DNA from: Escherichia phage APECc02 | Length of the DNA stretch: 64,000 nt | Strand: one strand, 5' to 3' | Sequence record: NC_041869.1 | Position numbers and translations under genes: made by a program | Notes under the pieces: model-generated | Database searches by the model: none | The model's input: the letters and a program-made list of their open reading frames with translations, nothing else | Told to the model about the DNA's origin: nothing | Shown: positions 4,562 through 14,072 of the stretch, piece by piece | Position numbering within the stretch: the stretch's first letter is position 1 | Layout: each line of letters begins with the position of its first letter

Positions 4562-5845
4562 TCATTCCAGAACCTCCCAAGTATCTGGGTTAACATTTCG
4601 GACGCAGATACCGACAGGGAATTGGTAGTTGTTGTCTTCTGTCCTTGCTTGATATTTGAAGGTGACAAACTTGCCGATCATTTCCTGCATCCTGTCATAG
4701 CTACGCTCCTCGTGCGTGCCTTTCATCTTCATTTTAACAACAACACCTTCCTTGTCAACACAGATAAGAACACCTTCATCATTCTTATCTTTCTCAACGT
4801 CAATAACTTTCACCTCTGCGTCGTTGAACTTTTTCCATTTCAATGCTTCAGATGTTCGCTGACCATACTCATATTTACCACAGAAGTTACGCATAATGGT
4901 ACCTTCATATCCTTCAGACATAAATATACCAACAGACTCTTCGCACCGATCAACCGTATATGCAAGCTCTGCATCAACAACCTTAATATGATCAAGCATC
5001 AAAGAAGTAATAGCACCGTTTGCCTCCATAAGATCCTTACAGCGACCAGACTCTGTTTCAGGATCCCACCACACCTTATCGCTAGGAATATCGAAAATAT
5101 GATACTCTAAGTCGTAGCTGCAGTACCCTCCGTAACGCAAATCATCACGAACAGGCTCAACATCAACAGGAATGTCCACCTTGTTGAAGTTTTTGTATGT
5201 TGCTAAACCTGCTTTAATCGCAGCCTGACGGCGTTTTTTATCTGCCTTGTAGTCTTTATCGATCTCGGCCTGAATTTCTTCCTGTGTGCGCCACCGTTTA
5301 GCAAGAGACACTATTTTCTGCAGAGGCAGACCATGAATATAGAGCTCTCCGTCGAGCTGTTTAATCCCGGTGGTTAGGTGGAAAGAGCGAAGTTGCTCCA
5401 GAAGCTTTCCTTGAATAGGGTAGGACTTATTACCACGGGAAATAAATTTAGGCTCACCATTCTGGAAAACAACAAGTAGACGAAGGCCATCTAACTTACG
5501 CAAGATCCAGCAAGGTAATTTAAGTGCCTTGCCACGCTTCAGGTAGTCATGCACCAACATGGGTAAAAGATCAACACCTTGCTCACAATCTTCCATACTC
5601 TCCACGTACCCGAGTCGGACCTGTTTTTCCCACTTACTGATCGCTTCCAGCTCGGCCTGTTGCTCAGCTGTAGTTTCATTGGCGCGACCCACGTTCTTAG
5701 GTGTGCAGATCGTCTCTTTGTATTGCAGTTTACCATCAAGCTTGCCAAACTCTACGATAACCTTATCACCATCCGTGAATACTTTCCACTGTTGGTAGCT
5801 GCCATCTTTGTTCAGTGCGTACAGTGTTGTTTTGATTTGATGCAT
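4562..5845 (-). CDS. ATP-dependent DNA ligase
   Basis: 427 aa; nucleotidyltransferase motif I KLDGLR (adenylated Lys), motif IV EGTIMR, motif V LKWKK. Confidence 0.85.
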   Translation of the reverse strand: MHQIKTTLYALNKDGSYQQWKVFTDGDKVIVEFGKLDGKLQYKETICTPKNVGRANETTAEQQAELEAISKWEKQVRLGYVESMEDCEQGVDLLPMLVHDYLKRGKALKLPCWILRKLDGLRLLVVFQNGEPKFISRGNKSYPIQGKLLEQLRSFHLTTGIKQLDGELYIHGLPLQKIVSLAKRWRTQEEIQAEIDKDYKADKKRRQAAIKAGLATYKNFNKVDIPVDVEPVRDDLRYGGYCSYDLEYHIFDIPSDKVWWDPETESGRCKDLMEANGAITSLMLDHIKVVDAELAYTVDRCEESVGIFMSEGYEGTIMRNFCGKYEYGQRTSEALKWKKFNDAEVKVIDVEKDKNDEGVLICVDKEGVVVKMKMKGTHEERSYDRMQEMIGKFVTFKYQARTEDNNYQFPVGICVRNVNPDTWEVLE

Positions 5846-6439: not shown

Positions 6440-6472
6440 AACAAGTAAAGCCGGGTAATCCCGGCCATGTTG

Positions 6473-7186
6473 TTAAATATACTCTGCTACATCCTTGAAG
6501 CTCGAAGGCTTCATGATCTTACCTTTACTGTCAAGGAATATGATAACTTTATTACCGTTGTAGAATTCTTCCTTAGCAACAAAACCTTCATATCGACCAT
6601 CAAAGCGTCGCTCAAGATCTTTAATCTCCAACTCTATGAGTTGTTCAGCAGGCATATCTGCACTGGCACCGTGTGAATACCGTAGATGGTTGACCCGTGC
6701 AAACTTGCTGTCATTCGATTTGAGAACCTTACGCATCATCCCGCACACATCGCCGCGAAGCTGGAACAGCAAAGCTGTTGACAACTCCGCTAAACGGTAA
6801 GCTGACGCTCTTTGCTTGGATGTGTTTTTCGCAGCGATCAGTGTGTCATAGAACTCACCGATCTTGAACTTAAGACCTTGTGGATTATCAAACAGGTTTG
6901 ACCACTTTTCGTGATTGTCATTAACAAGATAAGCTGCATAACTTGTGACAACGTGAAGATCGCAGGCCTCCTTTAGCAGGTGATCTCCACCATCACCTTT
7001 CTCCAGCTCTTCCAAAACTTCATTGAACTCTTCCTCAATGAAGCTAAGCTGTAATTCGAATGGTGTGTATGATTTTTTCACTTTAGCTGCCACACGGTTC
7101 CAGTTTTCCACCCAGTTGGCAGACCAAAGGTAGTTTTCAGGTTGGGATAGTTTTTCCAGGTTGTCAATTAATTTAGTATTCAGCAT
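6473..7186 (-). CDS. hypothetical protein, possible MazG-like all-alpha NTP pyrophosphohydrolase
   Basis: 237 aa; EEEFNEVLEELEKGDGGDHLLKEACDLH resembles the EExxE...E..D metal-binding helix pattern of MazG/HisE-type enzymes. Weak. Confidence 0.4.
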   Translation of the reverse strand: MLNTKLIDNLEKLSQPENYLWSANWVENWNRVAAKVKKSYTPFELQLSFIEEEFNEVLEELEKGDGGDHLLKEACDLHVVTSYAAYLVNDNHEKWSNLFDNPQGLKFKIGEFYDTLIAAKNTSKQRASAYRLAELSTALLFQLRGDVCGMMRKVLKSNDSKFARVNHLRYSHGASADMPAEQLIELEIKDLERRFDGRYEGFVAKEEFYNGNKVIIFLDSKGKIMKPSSFKDVAEYI

Positions 7187-7199
7187 TAAAGGTCTCCTT

Positions 7200-7961
7200 T
7201 TAAAGTTCCATAAAGTTTTCTACAGTCTCAATGAATGTTTTATCAGAGAAGGCATCAACCGCACCGTTAAACCAAACTGGGATGCCGCGATCCTCATACT
7301 GGTAAATATCACTACGTGAAATGCCATTCTCCTCTAGATGCTGTGAGTCGTATTTATTAACGATCAGTAGTTTGGTTCCCTTATTGCAGGCAGGGAATAG
7401 CTCCCAGTTAAAATTGATAACTGTGTTGGAGCACCCTACAAGGATAACCATATCATTGCTCGTAAGAGAAGTCAACAGGTCATACATGTCTGTATACTTC
7501 GGAGCTACTTCTCCGAAGAACACCACATTAGGCTTAACCCAGGTATACTTTCCTGCGTCTACCTCAGAGTATCCAATGTCCTTAATGACGTCACTTCCTT
7601 CATCGTCCTCATAGACTATTTCTGGCAAATACCCGTGGACATGTAAAATATCTTCATGTTTTACACCAGCACGCTCCAGCAAATCATCTACATTGGTGGT
7701 AAGGTTGATCACACGACCAGACCAGCGGGAATACCACTCAGCGATCCGAAGATGTGCAAGGTTAGGCTCAACACTGCCTAAAGCTACACGACGTGCATTG
7801 TAAAAGTCATGCACCTTATAGTAGTTCTTGGCAAAGGTGTGGATGTTGCACACCTCATCGATGCTGAAATTCTCCCACATTGCAGTGCTACCAGATCGGA
7901 AAGTGGGAATACCAGATTCAGCGCTCAAACCAGCACCGGAGATAATAATCAGTCGTCGCAT
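7200..7961 (-). CDS. Sir2-family (sirtuin-like) NAD-dependent deacetylase / ADP-ribosyltransferase
   Basis: 253 aa; the three sirtuin hallmark motifs are present: ISGAGLSAESGIPTFRS (GAGxSxxSGIPxFR), TTNVDDL (TQNID-like) and HVHGY (catalytic His-Gly). Confidence 0.8.
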   Translation of the reverse strand: MRRLIIISGAGLSAESGIPTFRSGSTAMWENFSIDEVCNIHTFAKNYYKVHDFYNARRVALGSVEPNLAHLRIAEWYSRWSGRVINLTTNVDDLLERAGVKHEDILHVHGYLPEIVYEDDEGSDVIKDIGYSEVDAGKYTWVKPNVVFFGEVAPKYTDMYDLLTSLTSNDMVILVGCSNTVINFNWELFPACNKGTKLLIVNKYDSQHLEENGISRSDIYQYEDRGIPVWFNGAVDAFSDKTFIETVENFMEL

Positions 7962-7969
7962 AAGTGTCC

Positions 7970-8320
7970 TCAGTAGATGTTTTGTTTAATCTCTATTCCA
8001 AACTTTTTAAACGAGTCAGCTGCAAGCATGAATTTACGAGCCGCTGATGGGTTAGAAGTATGCACGAAAATCTTCACGTTGTCAACTACAGGAGGCTTAC
8101 CAAATACAAATTTTTCCTCTAGGATGCAGAAGCAATCGTATCCTTCAAAAATTTCTCCCAAGTCGCTGTCAAAATGCCACTCAGAAACTCGTCTATAAAG
8201 CTTTCTCTTGTCATTGATGAAATCCATAAACTCAGAAGAGTTCTTCAGCCAAAGAGCATCTTGGAGCCCGTAATTTGACGGATCTCTCAAGTCATCCAGC
8301 CACACAATCAACTTCTTCAT
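7970..8320 (-). CDS. hypothetical protein
   Basis: 116-aa ORF packed between the Sir2 gene and the RNA-ligase-like gene. Confidence 0.45.
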   Translation of the reverse strand: MKKLIVWLDDLRDPSNYGLQDALWLKNSSEFMDFINDKRKLYRRVSEWHFDSDLGEIFEGYDCFCILEEKFVFGKPPVVDNVKIFVHTSNPSAARKFMLAADSFKKFGIEIKQNIY

Positions 8321-9252
8321 TGCATATAGTCCTCGTTGTGGAAATAGTAGTCAAGTATCTCGCGGCGTTCCTGCTCAAGGAGACAGTTCCACACATCTTC
8401 TGTGTAATTGCTACGAATGAAGTTTACCATGCCGTAAAACTCTTCGTCAACACGTTTAAAGATATCCTCATCCCAAATCTTCCAAGCTTTACCTCTCATT
8501 ACGGCCTTCCGTGCCAAATAGTACGGAGACTTGATCTTCAGCTGCAGATCATAAGGGTAGTAAGGCTTACGAATCATATACCCTTCACCTCTTGTTTCTG
8601 CAGCTAATTCTTTTGCATAACTGAACGGAATTTCACGCACAGTGTGAGGACGTTTTGCACCAAGGTATTTGGCAATCCCATCTAAAGCTGCCTCTGGTAG
8701 CATTATTCCAGAATCATTATATCTGCAACCTATCAAATATGCGCCATGATCTTCCTGAACAATATGCGGATCTGAAGGGTGACAAATTTCAAACATGAAT
8801 GTCATGTTTTCATTGCCCATAACCTTCTTGATAAGATCTAAATTACCACATTGCTCCTGGATGGTTTCCTTTGCGAGGTTACAATATGGAGAATCAAGAG
8901 ATCCGGTTGTTGAGAACAATAGTTCACCTTTATGAGAGGATACCACACCAAGGAATCCGTTCTTTTTCTCTACCGCCGTCACAAGCTTATTGTCAGGCAG
9001 GTTGGTGGAGTTTTCTCCCAAGTTAAACACTTTTGTGAAGGGCCATGCCACAACATTTCCTTCATTACCGACAACAATGCCTCGGCACTCCAGTAAACGA
9101 GGGGACAAATGCCATAAATTGTTGTAAAATACTTTTCTGGCATATTTATAGATCTTTAACCCAAGATCCGGGTAATATCTACTGGTTACAAGACCTTTGT
9201 CAACTAGGTCGTCTGCATTAAAATACTTCATCATACGTTCCTCATTTGTCAT
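8317..9252 (-). CDS. putative RNA ligase (covalent nucleotidyltransferase)
   Basis: 311 aa; motif I KKNGF (Kx[DN]G), motif IV EGYMIRK, motif V LKIK; a separate DNA ligase already exists at 4562-5845 and a PNK-like kinase lies next door. Confidence 0.6.
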   Translation of the reverse strand: MTNEERMMKYFNADDLVDKGLVTSRYYPDLGLKIYKYARKVFYNNLWHLSPRLLECRGIVVGNEGNVVAWPFTKVFNLGENSTNLPDNKLVTAVEKKNGFLGVVSSHKGELLFSTTGSLDSPYCNLAKETIQEQCGNLDLIKKVMGNENMTFMFEICHPSDPHIVQEDHGAYLIGCRYNDSGIMLPEAALDGIAKYLGAKRPHTVREIPFSYAKELAAETRGEGYMIRKPYYPYDLQLKIKSPYYLARKAVMRGKAWKIWDEDIFKRVDEEFYGMVNFIRSNYTEDVWNCLLEQERREILDYYFHNEDYMQ

Positions 9253-9295
9253 TTTGTCAGTCTATCCTGCCACACAAATAACCTAGTGTCAACAC

Positions 9296-9324
9296 TTGAA
9301 ATTAACAAAACAGTTAGGTATACT
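9296..9324 (+). promoter_or_regulatory. sigma70-like promoter (TTGAAA-N17-TATACT)
   Basis: Hexamers with 17-nt spacing in the divergent intergenic region upstream of the kinase gene. Confidence 0.5.
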
Positions 9325-9352
9325 ATCGTTGAAATTAAAACGGAGTATTACT

Positions 9353-9763
9353 ATGTCTAAAATGCTATATATCGTGCGTGGTCTACCAGGGTCTGGCAAA
9401 TCAACACTGGCAAATGCGCTATCTTTAGAAGGTCTGTATCCACATTTTGAGAACGACATGTTCTGGTACGACGATGATGGAAATTACAACTGGGATGCAA
9501 GTAAAGTAACACTTGCAGCAAAATGGTGCAAAGATAACGTAGAAGATATGATGCGTATGGGATACGACCGTATCGTGGTAAGTAATACGTTTACAAAAGA
9601 AAAATATGTGCAAGAATATATTGACATGGCGATCAGTCATGGGTATAGTTATACCGTGATCGTGGTTGAAAACCGCCATGGTAATAAAAGCATTCATGAT
9701 GTTCCAGACAGGGTTGTGGATCGTATGGAACGCCAGCTTAAAAATTGCATTAAACTTAAATGA
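9353..9763 (+). CDS. polynucleotide 5'-kinase (P-loop, T4 Pnk kinase-domain-like)
   Basis: Start moved to the ATG at 9353 (GGAG RBS upstream). Walker A GLPGSGKST and IVVSNTFT resemble the T4 Pnk N-terminal kinase domain. Confidence 0.7.
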   Translation: MSKMLYIVRGLPGSGKSTLANALSLEGLYPHFENDMFWYDDDGNYNWDASKVTLAAKWCKDNVEDMMRMGYDRIVVSNTFTKEKYVQEYIDMAISHGYSYTVIVVENRHGNKSIHDVPDRVVDRMERQLKNCIKLK

Positions 9764-9770
9764 GGAATGT

Positions 9771-10325
9771 ATGAAATACTTTGTAACAAGCGACACACAC
9801 TTTCTCCACCAGCGGGTCATGGAGTTCGACTCATGTCAAAAACACAGATCTCAGTATGATCACAATCTTGACAGTATGAATGCGGGAATCATCACCGAGT
9901 GGAACTCTGTTGTGTCACCTGCAGACACTGTGTTCCACCTGGGAGATATTGCGTGCACTAATGATAAGAATATCAACAAATTGCTCCCAGATGTTCTAAA
10001 TATGTTGAACGGACATATTATTCTTGTTCGTGGTAACCATGACACAAGGACGACTGTCAGAATTATGAAAGAGTTCGGTCATGAGGTTGTAGATTATTAC
10101 GAGCTTCGCCACAACAAGAATTTGATCTGTATGAGCCATTACCAGTTTGCAAAGTGGAACAGAAAGCCTCACGGATCAGTCCAACTGTTCGGTCATGCTC
10201 ACGGAACCACACAGCAGTTGTTTGGCAGGCAGTTTGATGTCGGTTGGGATGTGTGGGGGAGACTCTTACCATTAGAAGAGGCATACCGTATTGCAATGAG
10301 TCTTGCTATTGACAGCGGGGAGTAA
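9771..10325 (+). CDS. calcineurin-like metallophosphoesterase
   Basis: Start at the ATG at 9771 (GAGGA RBS). Metallophosphatase motifs SDTHF, GDIA, GNHD and GHAHG. Confidence 0.75.
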   Translation: MKYFVTSDTHFLHQRVMEFDSCQKHRSQYDHNLDSMNAGIITEWNSVVSPADTVFHLGDIACTNDKNINKLLPDVLNMLNGHIILVRGNHDTRTTVRIMKEFGHEVVDYYELRHNKNLICMSHYQFAKWNRKPHGSVQLFGHAHGTTQQLFGRQFDVGWDVWGRLLPLEEAYRIAMSLAIDSGE

Positions 10326-10372: not shown

Positions 10373-10723
10373 ATGAAAGATGGGGATAAGCTGCTATATC
10401 TTAAAGTCCCCCTTGAAATACTGTCTATGTCAAAAGTTTTGAATGACACAACTGGGGAGGTTGTTGTTCTTGACTTGTATGACAAGATCGTATACTGCTA
10501 CCTGCACAACTGGTATAAGCTTGGAGGAAGTTCACGCTTCACACCCAGCACAAGGAAAATTGCAGCAGATGTTGGGATAAAGAAAACAAAAGCAGCAGCG
10601 TGCGTTAAAACTTTAGAATGTGCAGGAGTGGTTGAAATATCCACACAAGGGAGAGGTAAAAGATGCACATTTTCCAAAGTTTTGCCACCAGAAGAGGTTA
10701 TTCGAATGTCAACAACTGGTTAG
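10373..10723 (+). CDS. putative DNA-binding protein (helix-turn-helix-like)
   Basis: 116 aa; segment STRKIAADVGIKKTKAAACVKTLECAGVVEI looks like an HTH/winged helix; gene ends 75 bp upstream of the palindromic repeat array. Confidence 0.4.
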   Translation: MKDGDKLLYLKVPLEILSMSKVLNDTTGEVVVLDLYDKIVYCYLHNWYKLGGSSRFTPSTRKIAADVGIKKTKAAACVKTLECAGVVEISTQGRGKRCTFSKVLPPEEVIRMSTTG

Positions 10724-13259: not shown

Positions 13260-13334
13260 GCCCTGTTAGCTTAGTGGATAAAGCAGCGGCCTTCTAAGCC
13301 GTTGACACTGGTTCGAGTCCAGTACGGGGTGCCA
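13260..13334 (+). tRNA. tRNA-Arg (anticodon TCT)
   Basis: Hand-folded cloverleaf: acceptor gccctgt/acggggt (two G-U pairs), D stem gctt/aagc, anticodon loop cttctaa, T arm actgg-ttcgagt-ccagt, encoded CCA. Confidence 0.75.
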
Positions 13335-13338
13335 AATT

Positions 13339-13425
13339 GGGGAGTTATCCCGTAGAGGTAGCGGTGTAGACTGTAAATCTATTGTCATTGCGACTCGGGT
13401 GGTTCGACTCCACCACTCCCCACCA
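13339..13425 (+). tRNA. tRNA-Tyr (anticodon GTA), long variable arm
   Basis: Acceptor ggggagt/actcccc, anticodon loop ctgtaaa, T arm ggtgg-ttcgact-ccacc, encoded CCA; 87 nt type II. Confidence 0.75.
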
Positions 13426-13539
13426 AATTTACATTTTTAAATGCATAAATCATACAGATAATGGCATTGATATTTATCGTCGTTTATACTAGTCACTAAC
13501 TGCTCGAAAATCAGTGTCATTATCAGTATTGTTTATAAA

Positions 13540-13630
13540 TGAGGGTAGGGAGCAATGGTGCTCAAGCGGTCTTGAAAACCGTCCCGTTGAGGATGACTCG
13601 ATGATGGTTCGATTCCATTACCCTCAGCCA
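13540..13630 (+). tRNA. tRNA-Ser (anticodon TGA), long variable arm
   Basis: Acceptor tgagggt/accctca, anticodon stem-loop gcggt-cttgaaa-accgt, T loop ttcgatt, encoded CCA; 91 nt. Confidence 0.7.
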
Positions 13631-13728
13631 TATTGTTGACCTTGTAATTAAGCGAAAGCCGGAAGCAGAACCGGATTATCAAATGTTACAGTCGTCATCG
13701 CCGACTAGCAACATGGTCAACATACTGA

Positions 13729-13825
13729 GCTAGGTAAGCCCTTTGGCAAGGGCGAGGATTTTTAATCCTGAAAATAGACGAGGTAGTCGTTGAATACATA
13801 GGTGGTTCGATTCCATCACCTAGCA
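13729..13825 (+). tRNA. tRNA-like gene, identity ambiguous (anticodon possibly TTT, Lys)
   Basis: Perfect acceptor gctaggt/acctagc, D stem gccc/gggc, T arm ggtgg-ttcgatt-ccatc, but about 30 nt between anticodon arm and T arm, no position-26 spacer, no encoded CCA. Confidence 0.4.
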
Positions 13826-13832
13826 CCTTTTT

Positions 13833-13908
13833 GCTGATGTAGCACAATTGGTAGTGCAATTGATTTGTAATCAATAGGTTGCAGGTTCGAGTCCTGCTAT
13901 CAGCACCA
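13833..13908 (+). tRNA. tRNA-Thr (anticodon TGT)
   Basis: Acceptor gctgatg/tatcagc, D stem gcac/gtgc, anticodon arm attga-tttgtaa-tcaat, T arm gcagg-ttcgagt-cctgc, CCA; 76 nt. Confidence 0.8.
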
Positions 13909-13909
13909 T

Positions 13910-13984
13910 GGCCCTGTAGCTGGAAGGTTCAAGCAAGCGACTCATAATCGCCAGACGGTGGTTCAATTCCACCCAGGGCCACCA
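13910..13984 (+). tRNA. tRNA with CAT anticodon (Met, or Ile2 read via lysidine)
   Basis: Acceptor ggccctg/cagggcc, anticodon loop ctcataa, T arm ggtgg-ttcaatt-ccacc, CCA. The anticodon arm gcgactcataatcgc resembles bacterial tRNA-Ile2 as I recall it. Confidence 0.7.
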
Positions 13985-13995
13985 AATAATAAATA

Positions 13996-14072
13996 CTCCG
14001 CGTAGCTCAGCTTGGTAGAGCGCCTGATTTGGGATCAGGAGGTCGAGTGTTCGAATCACTCCGTGGAGACCA
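13996..14072 (+). tRNA. tRNA-Pro (anticodon TGG)
   Basis: Acceptor ctccgcg/cgtggag with C1-G72, D arm gctc-agcttggta-gagc, anticodon arm cctga-tttggga-tcagg, T arm gagtg-ttcgaat-cactc, CCA. Confidence 0.8.

Follow-up and report, generated by a model that had tools for sequence, protein, structure and literature searches.

Gene content of the locus

The stretch of DNA considered here (the window, i.e., all 64,000 nucleotides of one strand taken from sequence record NC_041869.1, Escherichia phage APECc02) carries at 8317–10325 three adjacent genes for a predicted RNA ligase, a predicted P-loop kinase and a predicted calcineurin-type metallophosphoesterase (MPE), which probably form a set of separate enzymes for the repair of broken RNA. 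In a nucleotide record search, the 4.4 kb around the cluster share 97.7% identity with isolates of Escherichia phage rV5 and the cluster region is matched by 120 Vequintavirus phage records, and by this sequence similarity the window is assigned to a Vequintavirus, an rV5-like E. coli phage. Eighteen unannotated GenBank records with the name 'Campylobacter phage' (e.g., MG065655 and MG065652) are also ~97% identical to the E. coli rV5-like region, which suggests host mis-assignment or contamination.

The open reading frame (ORF) of the RNA ligase occupies 8317–9252 on the minus strand and encodes 311 amino acids (aa), or 305 aa from the likely start at 9234, which is preceded by GAGGAA. The ORFs of the kinase (9296–9763) and of the MPE (9666–10325) lie on the plus strand, with likely starts at 9353 (136 aa) and 9771 (184 aa), respectively. 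These three starts have better ribosome-binding sites and are the ones annotated in the record of the BASEL phage RudolfGeigy (MZ501102), in which the counterparts are labeled 'RNA ligase', 'polynucleotide kinase' and 'putative phosphoresterase'; other public records use '3'-phosphatase, 5'-polynucleotide kinase' and 'phosphoesterase'. The original prediction, made from the sequence of the window, described these genes as a divergently arranged RNA-repair set, and the three-gene observation at 8317–10325 is confirmed, far beyond chance: the genes are intact, the layout is divergent, the profile families RNA_lig_T4_1, AAA_33 and Metallophos are matched, and all of the motifs named at that time are found (as KKNG, GEGYMIRK and LKIK in the ligase, GLPGSGKST in the kinase, and SDTH, GDIA and GNHD in the MPE) and are invariant across homologues. 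None of the three proteins has an NCBIfam equivalog, and the PADLOC defence models gave marginal P-loop matches only.

Assignment of the three proteins

The ligase matches the Pfam family RNA_lig_T4_1 (PF09511) with E = 6e-15 and 56 bits (cut-off 28.3), covering the full model from 1 to 227, and PHROG 562 with E = 4e-66. A single-sequence phmmer search of the PDB gave nothing useful for this protein. A family profile built from 20 homologues (42–49% identical) matched T4 RNA ligase 1 (2C5U) at E = 2e-14; the second PDB match was a DNA ligase with a marginal E of 0.013, and no fungal Trl1 structure was matched at E up to 1. The residues of nucleotidyltransferase motifs I, III, IV and V, namely, K96/N98/G99, E155, E223/G224 and K239/K241, are invariant in 20 of 20 homologues, and the order and spacing of K96, E155, E223/G224 and K239/K241 match those of T4 K99, E159, E227/G228 and K240/K242. 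R57, K74 and F76 are likewise invariant and align to R54, K75 and F77 of T4 Rnl1. Of the essential residues of T4 Rnl1 (R54, K75, F77, G102, K119, E227, G228, K240 and K242), eight of nine, all but K119, align to invariant residues of the ligase. These matches support its prediction as an ATP-dependent, RNA-sealing enzyme of the Rnl1 family. The phage also has a separate gene for an ATP-dependent DNA ligase (427 aa, 4562–5845), which lies on the minus strand like that of the RNA ligase and about 2.5 kb downstream of it.

The kinase (9353–9763, plus strand) is a stand-alone, polynucleotide-kinase-like P-loop protein of 136 aa with the Walker A sequence GLPGSGKST, a candidate catalytic Asp35 and an ENRHG...H.VP motif, one of the many stand-alone 'predicted kinases' of ~130 aa that make up a very large family. 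It matches AAA_33 of Pfam (E = 5e-10) and PHROG 2071 (E = 7e-59); G10, G15, K16, T18 and D35 are invariant in 42 homologues, as are N78/T79 and the ENRH motif. While a single-sequence phmmer search of the PDB returned nothing useful, the family profile matched Pnkp1 (6e-5), T4 Pnk (1e-4) and CthPnk (7e-4), and in the profile alignment D35 is aligned with the catalytic Asp35 of T4 Pnk, and R108 of the invariant ENRHG may match the R122/R126 region of the T4 enzyme. An AlphaFold model with a predicted local distance difference test score (pLDDT) of 87 was compared with known structures using Foldseek, and the top matches were the CthPnkp kinase (4JST), T4 Pnk (1LY1/2IA5), 4GP7 and Pnkp1 (4XRP), with query-normalized TM-scores (TMq) of 0.69–0.77; gluconate, shikimate and adenylate kinases (TMq 0.45–0.60) fell behind the polynucleotide kinases. 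The 136-aa protein consists of the kinase domain only, with no HAD 3'-phosphatase domain.

The MPE (9771–10325, plus strand; 184 aa) is a binuclear phosphoesterase of the aq_1665 clade, predicted to heal 2',3'-cyclic-phosphate or 3'-phosphate ends. Its scores lie above the Pfam cut-offs for both Metallophos_2 (E = 2e-6) and Metallophos (E = 8e-6), and it matches PHROG 547 (E = 5e-52). All of the canonical metal-ligand motifs (DxH, GD, GNH(D/E), H and GHxH) are present, and D8, H10, G58, D59, G88, N89, H90, H123, G141, H142 and H144 are invariant in 43 homologues. The sole close structural relative is Aquifex aeolicus aq_1665 (PDB 1XM7), and other members of the superfamily score well lower (LpxH 11.4, lambda phosphatase 10.7, YfcE 10.3, MJ0936 10.2 and a nuclease MPE 10.2). 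A specific relationship to the CthPnkp/lambda-phosphatase-like phosphoesterase clade was looked for and not found, and the match to the ligase-associated nuclease PdeM is weak (E = 2e-4, 20.6 bits against a cut-off of 150). Judged from its motifs, the chemistry of this MPE would suit end-healing, yet the protein falls outside the clade known to heal RNA ends.

The identities first given to the three proteins thus stand: the RNA-ligase-like nucleotidyltransferase by its profile match to T4 Rnl1, with a separate DNA ligase encoded nearby, the T4 Pnk-like kinase by its AAA_33 match and by the polynucleotide kinases being its closest folds, and the calcineurin-type metallophosphoesterase by its invariant motifs and Pfam scores. 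The further suggestion that an MPE takes the place of the HAD phosphatase holds insofar as a separate MPE is present; it is not unprecedented, since bacterial Pnkp has one as well, though of another clade.

Linkage of the three genes across ligase lineages

About 1,700 relatives of the ligase were detected. The linkage sample comprised 80 viral-contig loci and four other contigs (individual loci are given below by L numbers) encoding ligase relatives 35–89% identical to the query; the ORFs of these loci were searched with the kinase and MPE profiles, and the ligases were clustered at 80% identity into 54 lineages. A kinase lies within 10 kb of the ligase in 49 of the 54 lineages, with a median distance of 0 bp, and within 1 kb on the same strand in 43. 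The corresponding values for the MPE are 48 lineages within 10 kb (median 177 bp) and 43 within 1.5 kb on the same strand, and both partners are found within 10 kb in 45/54. As a control, 22 lineages have a DNA ligase homologue within 10 kb; its median distance is 1.9 kb, and in no lineage does it come closer than 100 bp. Both of the orders MPE–ligase–kinase and kinase–ligase–MPE are seen among the lineages, and two of the 54 encode a fusion protein with the kinase N-terminal to the ligase, e.g., in L054 (9527–10825), with AAA_33 at residues 16–115 and RNA_lig_T4_1 at residues 184–367. Because the adjacency persists through rearrangement and because such fusions exist, these gene arrangements are strong evidence that the predicted ligase, kinase and MPE work together.

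Sir2, cREC and MazG genes, which are described below for the window, were detected in only 7, 6 and 8 of the 54 lineages, respectively, counts that are lower bounds from single-sequence searches within 10 kb. Since the kinase and the MPE are near-universal partners, the conserved core is the ligase–kinase–MPE set, and the NAD-linked Sir2, cREC and MazG are detected in some lineages only.

Several loci show variations on this arrangement. Kinase–ligase fusion proteins of ~420–430 aa occur in L054, L041, L044–L047, L051, L053, L058 and L059, and no MPE of the aq_1665 type was detected within 10 kb at these fusion loci. In many relatives, the module includes two conserved small proteins: a ~73-aa protein (MARITIDTEMKV...TLEQ) is encoded between the MPE and the ligase (e.g., L029 3204–3425) and a ~138-aa protein (MTIKMRLDT...) between the ligase and the kinase (e.g., L029 4472–4921), with similar ORFs in L004, L015, L020, L022, L027, L030, L031 and L036; no Pfam family was found for either protein, the 138-aa one having a sub-threshold match to DUF4197. 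In L040, a 135-aa ORF at 7859–8278 (plus strand) between the MPE and the ligase has a HAD-like DxDxT motif (FDYDNTL) and no Pfam match, and by this motif it may be an additional phosphatase. In L004 (6904–8823), genes for a nicotinate phosphoribosyltransferase (NAPRTase; NAD salvage) and a Macro domain lie 1–3 kb downstream of the ligase–kinase pair and an HD-domain gene adjoins the MPE; judged from their domains, these neighbors are another putative tie of the module to NAD/ADP-ribose chemistry, in this case without Sir2.

Putative operons and neighboring genes in the window

The ligase appears to head a tight minus-strand operon with three further genes. Its stop codon overlaps, via ATGA, the start of a gene for a cyclic-phosphate-processing receiver-like protein (cREC; 7970–8320, minus strand, 116 aa, PF20274 with E = 1.7e-13), an overlap that indicates translational coupling. 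The gene for a Sir2-family protein (7200–7961, minus strand, 253 aa; PF02146 with E = 3e-27 and PHROG 2162 with E = 9e-110) starts 8 nt downstream of the cREC gene, and 13 nt further follows the last gene of the operon, which encodes a MazG-like nucleotide pyrophosphohydrolase (6473–7186, minus strand, 237 aa) with a match to PHROG 671 (E = 5e-22) and none to Pfam. The original prediction was incomplete in this respect: it missed the cREC, Sir2 and MazG-like genes, together with the published neighborhood of phage V5 to which they belong. The window's Sir2 is a member of the sirtuin clade discussed as a possible KptA analogue by Iyer et al. (2022, Viruses 14:1977), who also name MazG as a member of that neighborhood. 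The set of ligase, cREC, Sir2 and MazG-like genes recurs in ~145-kb relatives, e.g., L007, L012 and L016. No methyltransferase domain, and thus no candidate for a Hen1 2'-O-methyltransferase, was found among the eight neighboring proteins scanned with Pfam.

Just 3' of the MazG-like gene, a consensus scan finds a GC-rich hairpin at 6449–6466 (minus strand), a candidate operon terminator, though terminator-like sites in the region are not more numerous than in shuffled sequences and the evidence is thus weak. The two operons are separated by a divergent intergenic region of 100 bp (9253–9352) with consensus-like promoters, i.e., TTGAAA-17-TATACT at 9296–9324 on the plus strand, followed by a GGAG Shine–Dalgarno sequence ahead of the ATG at 9353, and, 5' of the ligase, TTGACA on the minus strand; similar consensus-like sites occur inside genes as well, so that the transcription units are inferred. 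The kinase and MPE genes in the window are translationally coupled. Both GC skew and coding strand flip at ~9.3 kb of the window, and just downstream of the MPE, at 10373–10723, lies a gene for a helix–turn–helix (HTH) protein that is annotated as a transcriptional regulator and matches PHROG 12838, 'replication initiation protein'. The divergent region (~9250–9350) is a possible origin or major early-promoter region.

tRNA genes near the cluster

A cluster of seven tRNA genes (13260–14072) begins 2.9 kb from position 10325, close to the 3 kb first estimated. One member, a 99-nt tRNA-like gene at 13729–13827 on the plus strand, has UUU (Lys) as its anticodon within the loop UUUUUAA, and its variable region is enlarged by 26 inserted nt, which form an additional stem-loop (GACGA/UCGUU). 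Its score on the Rfam tRNA model is 35.5 bits, and it folds into a cloverleaf plus the extra arm with a z of −3.7; ARAGORN assigns no type to it, and the BASEL record gives it as tRNA-Lys. RudolfGeigy and L006 carry almost the same gene. PrrC and PARIS classically target tRNA-Lys(UUU), for which this tRNA-Lys(UUU)-like gene may provide a nuclease-resistant substitute. The possibility that the additional 26 nt are an intron, for the splicing of which the ligase would be needed, was rejected because they lie in the variable region as an extra arm and not in the anticodon loop. tRNA genes occur within 10 kb at 42 of 86 loci, a count that has no background control and is not used here as evidence.

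Proposed pathway and alternative explanations

RNA cut by metal-independent host ribonucleases, e.g., anticodon nucleases, has a 2',3'-cyclic phosphate on one side of the break and a 5'-OH on the other. From the assignments above and the modeled kinase fold, we consider it likely that the cluster encodes a pathway of separate proteins that heals and seals such broken RNA by a T4-like route. In this pathway, the MPE (9771–10325) would take off the cyclic or 3' phosphate to leave a 3'-OH, the P-loop kinase (9353–9763) would phosphorylate the 5'-OH, and the Rnl1-like ligase (8317–9234), adenylylated at Lys96, would join the 3'-OH to the 5'-phosphate. The RNAs to be rejoined are probably tRNAs cut by host defence nucleases. 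In the rV5 lineage, cREC, Sir2 and the MazG-like protein would probably add a second handling of cyclic or 2'-phosphate ends or of NAD-derived by-products. The end-healing and sealing set originally proposed is thus supported by the identity of the ligase, the fold of the kinase, the 45/54 linkage and the kinase–ligase fusions.

Several observations weigh against this pathway. The position of T4 Rnl1 Lys119 is occupied in the ligase by Thr116 (STTG), and the alignment of the ligase to 2C5U stops around T4 residue 249, with ~65 residues of the ligase following motif V and no counterpart of the T4 C-terminal tRNA-specificity domain (T4 ~255–374) detected in the profile alignment. Because of this missing counterpart and of a score of 39.7 bits on the NCBIfam T4 RnlA equivalog TIGR02308, far under its cut-off of 242, the ligase is placed in a distinct subfamily inside the Rnl1 family. 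In the kinase, no equivalent of T4 Pnk Arg38 is evident in the profile alignment, position 38 being a Trp. 1XM7, the structure closest to the MPE, is a structural-genomics entry without an assigned function, so that no functional information comes from the match, and the next structural neighbors act on lipids, nucleotides, proteins or DNA. Among the 54 lineages, solely the clade of the window has its kinase and MPE divergent from the ligase. A search for published biochemical or genetic data on any member of the cluster, covering RNA repair in rV5/Vequintavirinae and phage MPE–kinase–ligase sets, found none. Finally, we infer the RNA-end or tRNA substrates, the order of the steps and the countering of host defence, with its putative nuclease and RNA target, from the assignments.

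The same genes could work through a yeast-like, NAD-dependent main route, in which cREC would open the cyclic phosphate to a 3'-OH/2'-phosphate end, the kinase would phosphorylate the 5'-OH, the ligase would leave a 2'-phosphate at the junction, Sir2, acting like Tpt1/KptA, would move this phosphate to NAD+, and the MPE and MazG-like protein would clear the resulting ADP-ribose cyclic phosphate. PF09511 is generally known to cover the fungal Trl1 ligase domain as well, and the tight packing of the ligase, cREC, Sir2 and MazG-like genes in one operon, together with the recurrence of this set in the ~145-kb relatives, would suit such a route, which has been put forward in print (Iyer et al. 2022). 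However, the same publication describes cREC as uncharacterized and knows of no sirtuin shown to be active on an RNA 2'-phosphate. As no Sir2 or cREC was detected within 10 kb of the ligase in most lineages, and as the ligase profile is Rnl1-like rather than Trl1-like, the T4-like chemistry is the more probable core; we consider the NAD-dependent one unlikely as the main route, but possible as an added branch in rV5-like phages. A related idea is that the aq_1665-clade MPE is a dedicated RNA 2',3'-cyclic-phosphodiesterase/3'-phosphatase, and/or that the Sir2, which is without a Zn ribbon, and cREC add NAD-dependent 2'-phosphate removal in rV5-like phages. We regard this idea as doubtful. If it were true, the MPE would add a third independently recruited type of end-healing enzyme to the two already known, which are the T4 Pnkp HAD domain and the lambda-phosphatase-like domain of bacterial Pnkp; the structural-genomics orphan aq_1665 would gain a function, and action on RNA would be established for a sirtuin for the first time.

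Three other explanations are poorly supported. The kinase and MPE may act on small molecules, such as cyclic-nucleotide or NAD-derived defence signals or nucleotide pools, with their adjacency to the ligase reflecting shared early expression; among the weaker structural relatives of the MPE are the phosphodiesterases YfcE, MJ0936, Rv0805 and GpdQ as well as diadenosine tetraphosphate (Ap4A) hydrolases, the neighboring Sir2 and MazG-like genes point to nucleotide or NAD chemistry, and the kinase is termed a 'nucleotide kinase' by Iyer et al. (2022). That the adjacency to the ligase is kept through permutations of gene order in 45 of the 54 lineages and extends to kinase–ligase fusions, and that polynucleotide kinases beat small-molecule kinases in the fold search (TMq ~0.75 vs. 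0.45–0.60), make this explanation improbable. An action on DNA, either by the kinase and MPE healing ends for the phage ATP-dependent DNA ligase or by the ligase-like protein itself sealing DNA, is more improbable still: although a DNA ligase is annotated ~2.5 kb downstream on the strand of the RNA ligase and has counterparts nearby in 22 lineages, and although the MPE has its weak match to PdeM, it is the Rnl1-like gene that the kinase and MPE adjoin, in no case a DNA ligase, the fusion partner of the kinase is an Rnl1-like domain, and the ligase matches RNA ligase 1 with a merely marginal DNA ligase match. T4 Pnkp and CthPnkp act on DNA ends, too, which counts for a DNA substrate. The ligase could lastly serve mainly as a tail-fiber attachment catalyst, a second activity of T4 gp63, in which case the neighboring enzymes would be unrelated; PHROG 562 and several GenBank entries do bear the label 'RNA ligase and tail fiber protein attachment catalyst', but this wording goes back to T4 gp63, the surrounding genes encode nucleic-acid enzymes rather than tail proteins, and the kinase and MPE stay linked to the ligase across lineages, so that we give this explanation hardly any credence.

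Prior knowledge and comparison with known systems

As a prediction, the cluster is already known, in that its genes are annotated publicly and the repair hypothesis has been published for this locus and genus. Iyer, Burroughs, Anantharaman and Aravind (2022, Viruses 14:1977, section 3.7.3) described the gene set as a predicted NAD-utilizing RNA-repair neighborhood, type 2 of their sirtuin-centered phage neighborhoods, with Escherichia phage V5 and Proteus phage Mydo as prototypes, and a 2021 paper by the same group defined cREC and noted calcineurin-like phosphatases in some phage repair systems. What is new here is the ligase–kinase–MPE set as the conserved core, with Sir2, cREC and MazG found in some lineages only. 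Given how common tRNA-cleaving defence has turned out to be, RNA repair by phages is a plausible form of counter-defence that has seen too little testing; the module is widespread, as judged from the number of ligase relatives, and since the BASEL phages that carry it (Bas52 and relatives) can be obtained as isolates on E. coli K-12, the prediction is directly testable.

The cluster resembles the T4 Pnkp and Rnl1 pair, which repairs tRNA-Lys and counters PrrC, in having an Rnl1-family ligase, whose catalytic residues are the same and equally spaced, and a P-loop kinase of the polynucleotide-kinase fold with an aligned Asp, and in being encoded by a phage with tRNA genes in its genome. It differs in that 3'-end healing would be carried out by a separate binuclear MPE, whereas T4 has a HAD domain fused to the kinase, and in that the ligase, with 305–311 aa, has an alignment ending before the T4 C-terminal tRNA-specificity domain. 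With the Pnkp/Hen1 system of C. thermocellum and the Pnkp1–Rnl–Hen1 system of Capnocytophaga, it shares the combination of a P-loop 5' kinase, a binuclear MPE and an ATP-dependent ligase, and CthPnkp and Pnkp1 are among the top PDB matches of the kinase model; in contrast to these bacterial systems, no Hen1 partner was found among the eight scanned neighbors, and the MPE is of the aq_1665-like clade. The fungal and plant Trl1 and Tpt1 pathway is similar in its PF09511 ligase, its polynucleotide kinase and its enzyme for opening the cyclic phosphate, and the Sir2 could, speculatively, be an NAD-using counterpart of Tpt1. Neither a 2H cyclic phosphodiesterase nor a Tpt1/KptA homologue was found in the module, however, and no Trl1 structure was matched.

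Nothing of substance sets the cluster apart from the type 2 neighborhood of Iyer et al. (2022): the locus and genus are the same, and the sirtuin, T4-like ligase, cREC, kinase, MazG and calcineurin-like phosphoesterase are all present at 6473–10325. While that study is anchored on the sirtuin and terms the phosphoesterase 'occasional', anchoring on the ligase, as done here, shows the MPE and the kinase to be near-universal.

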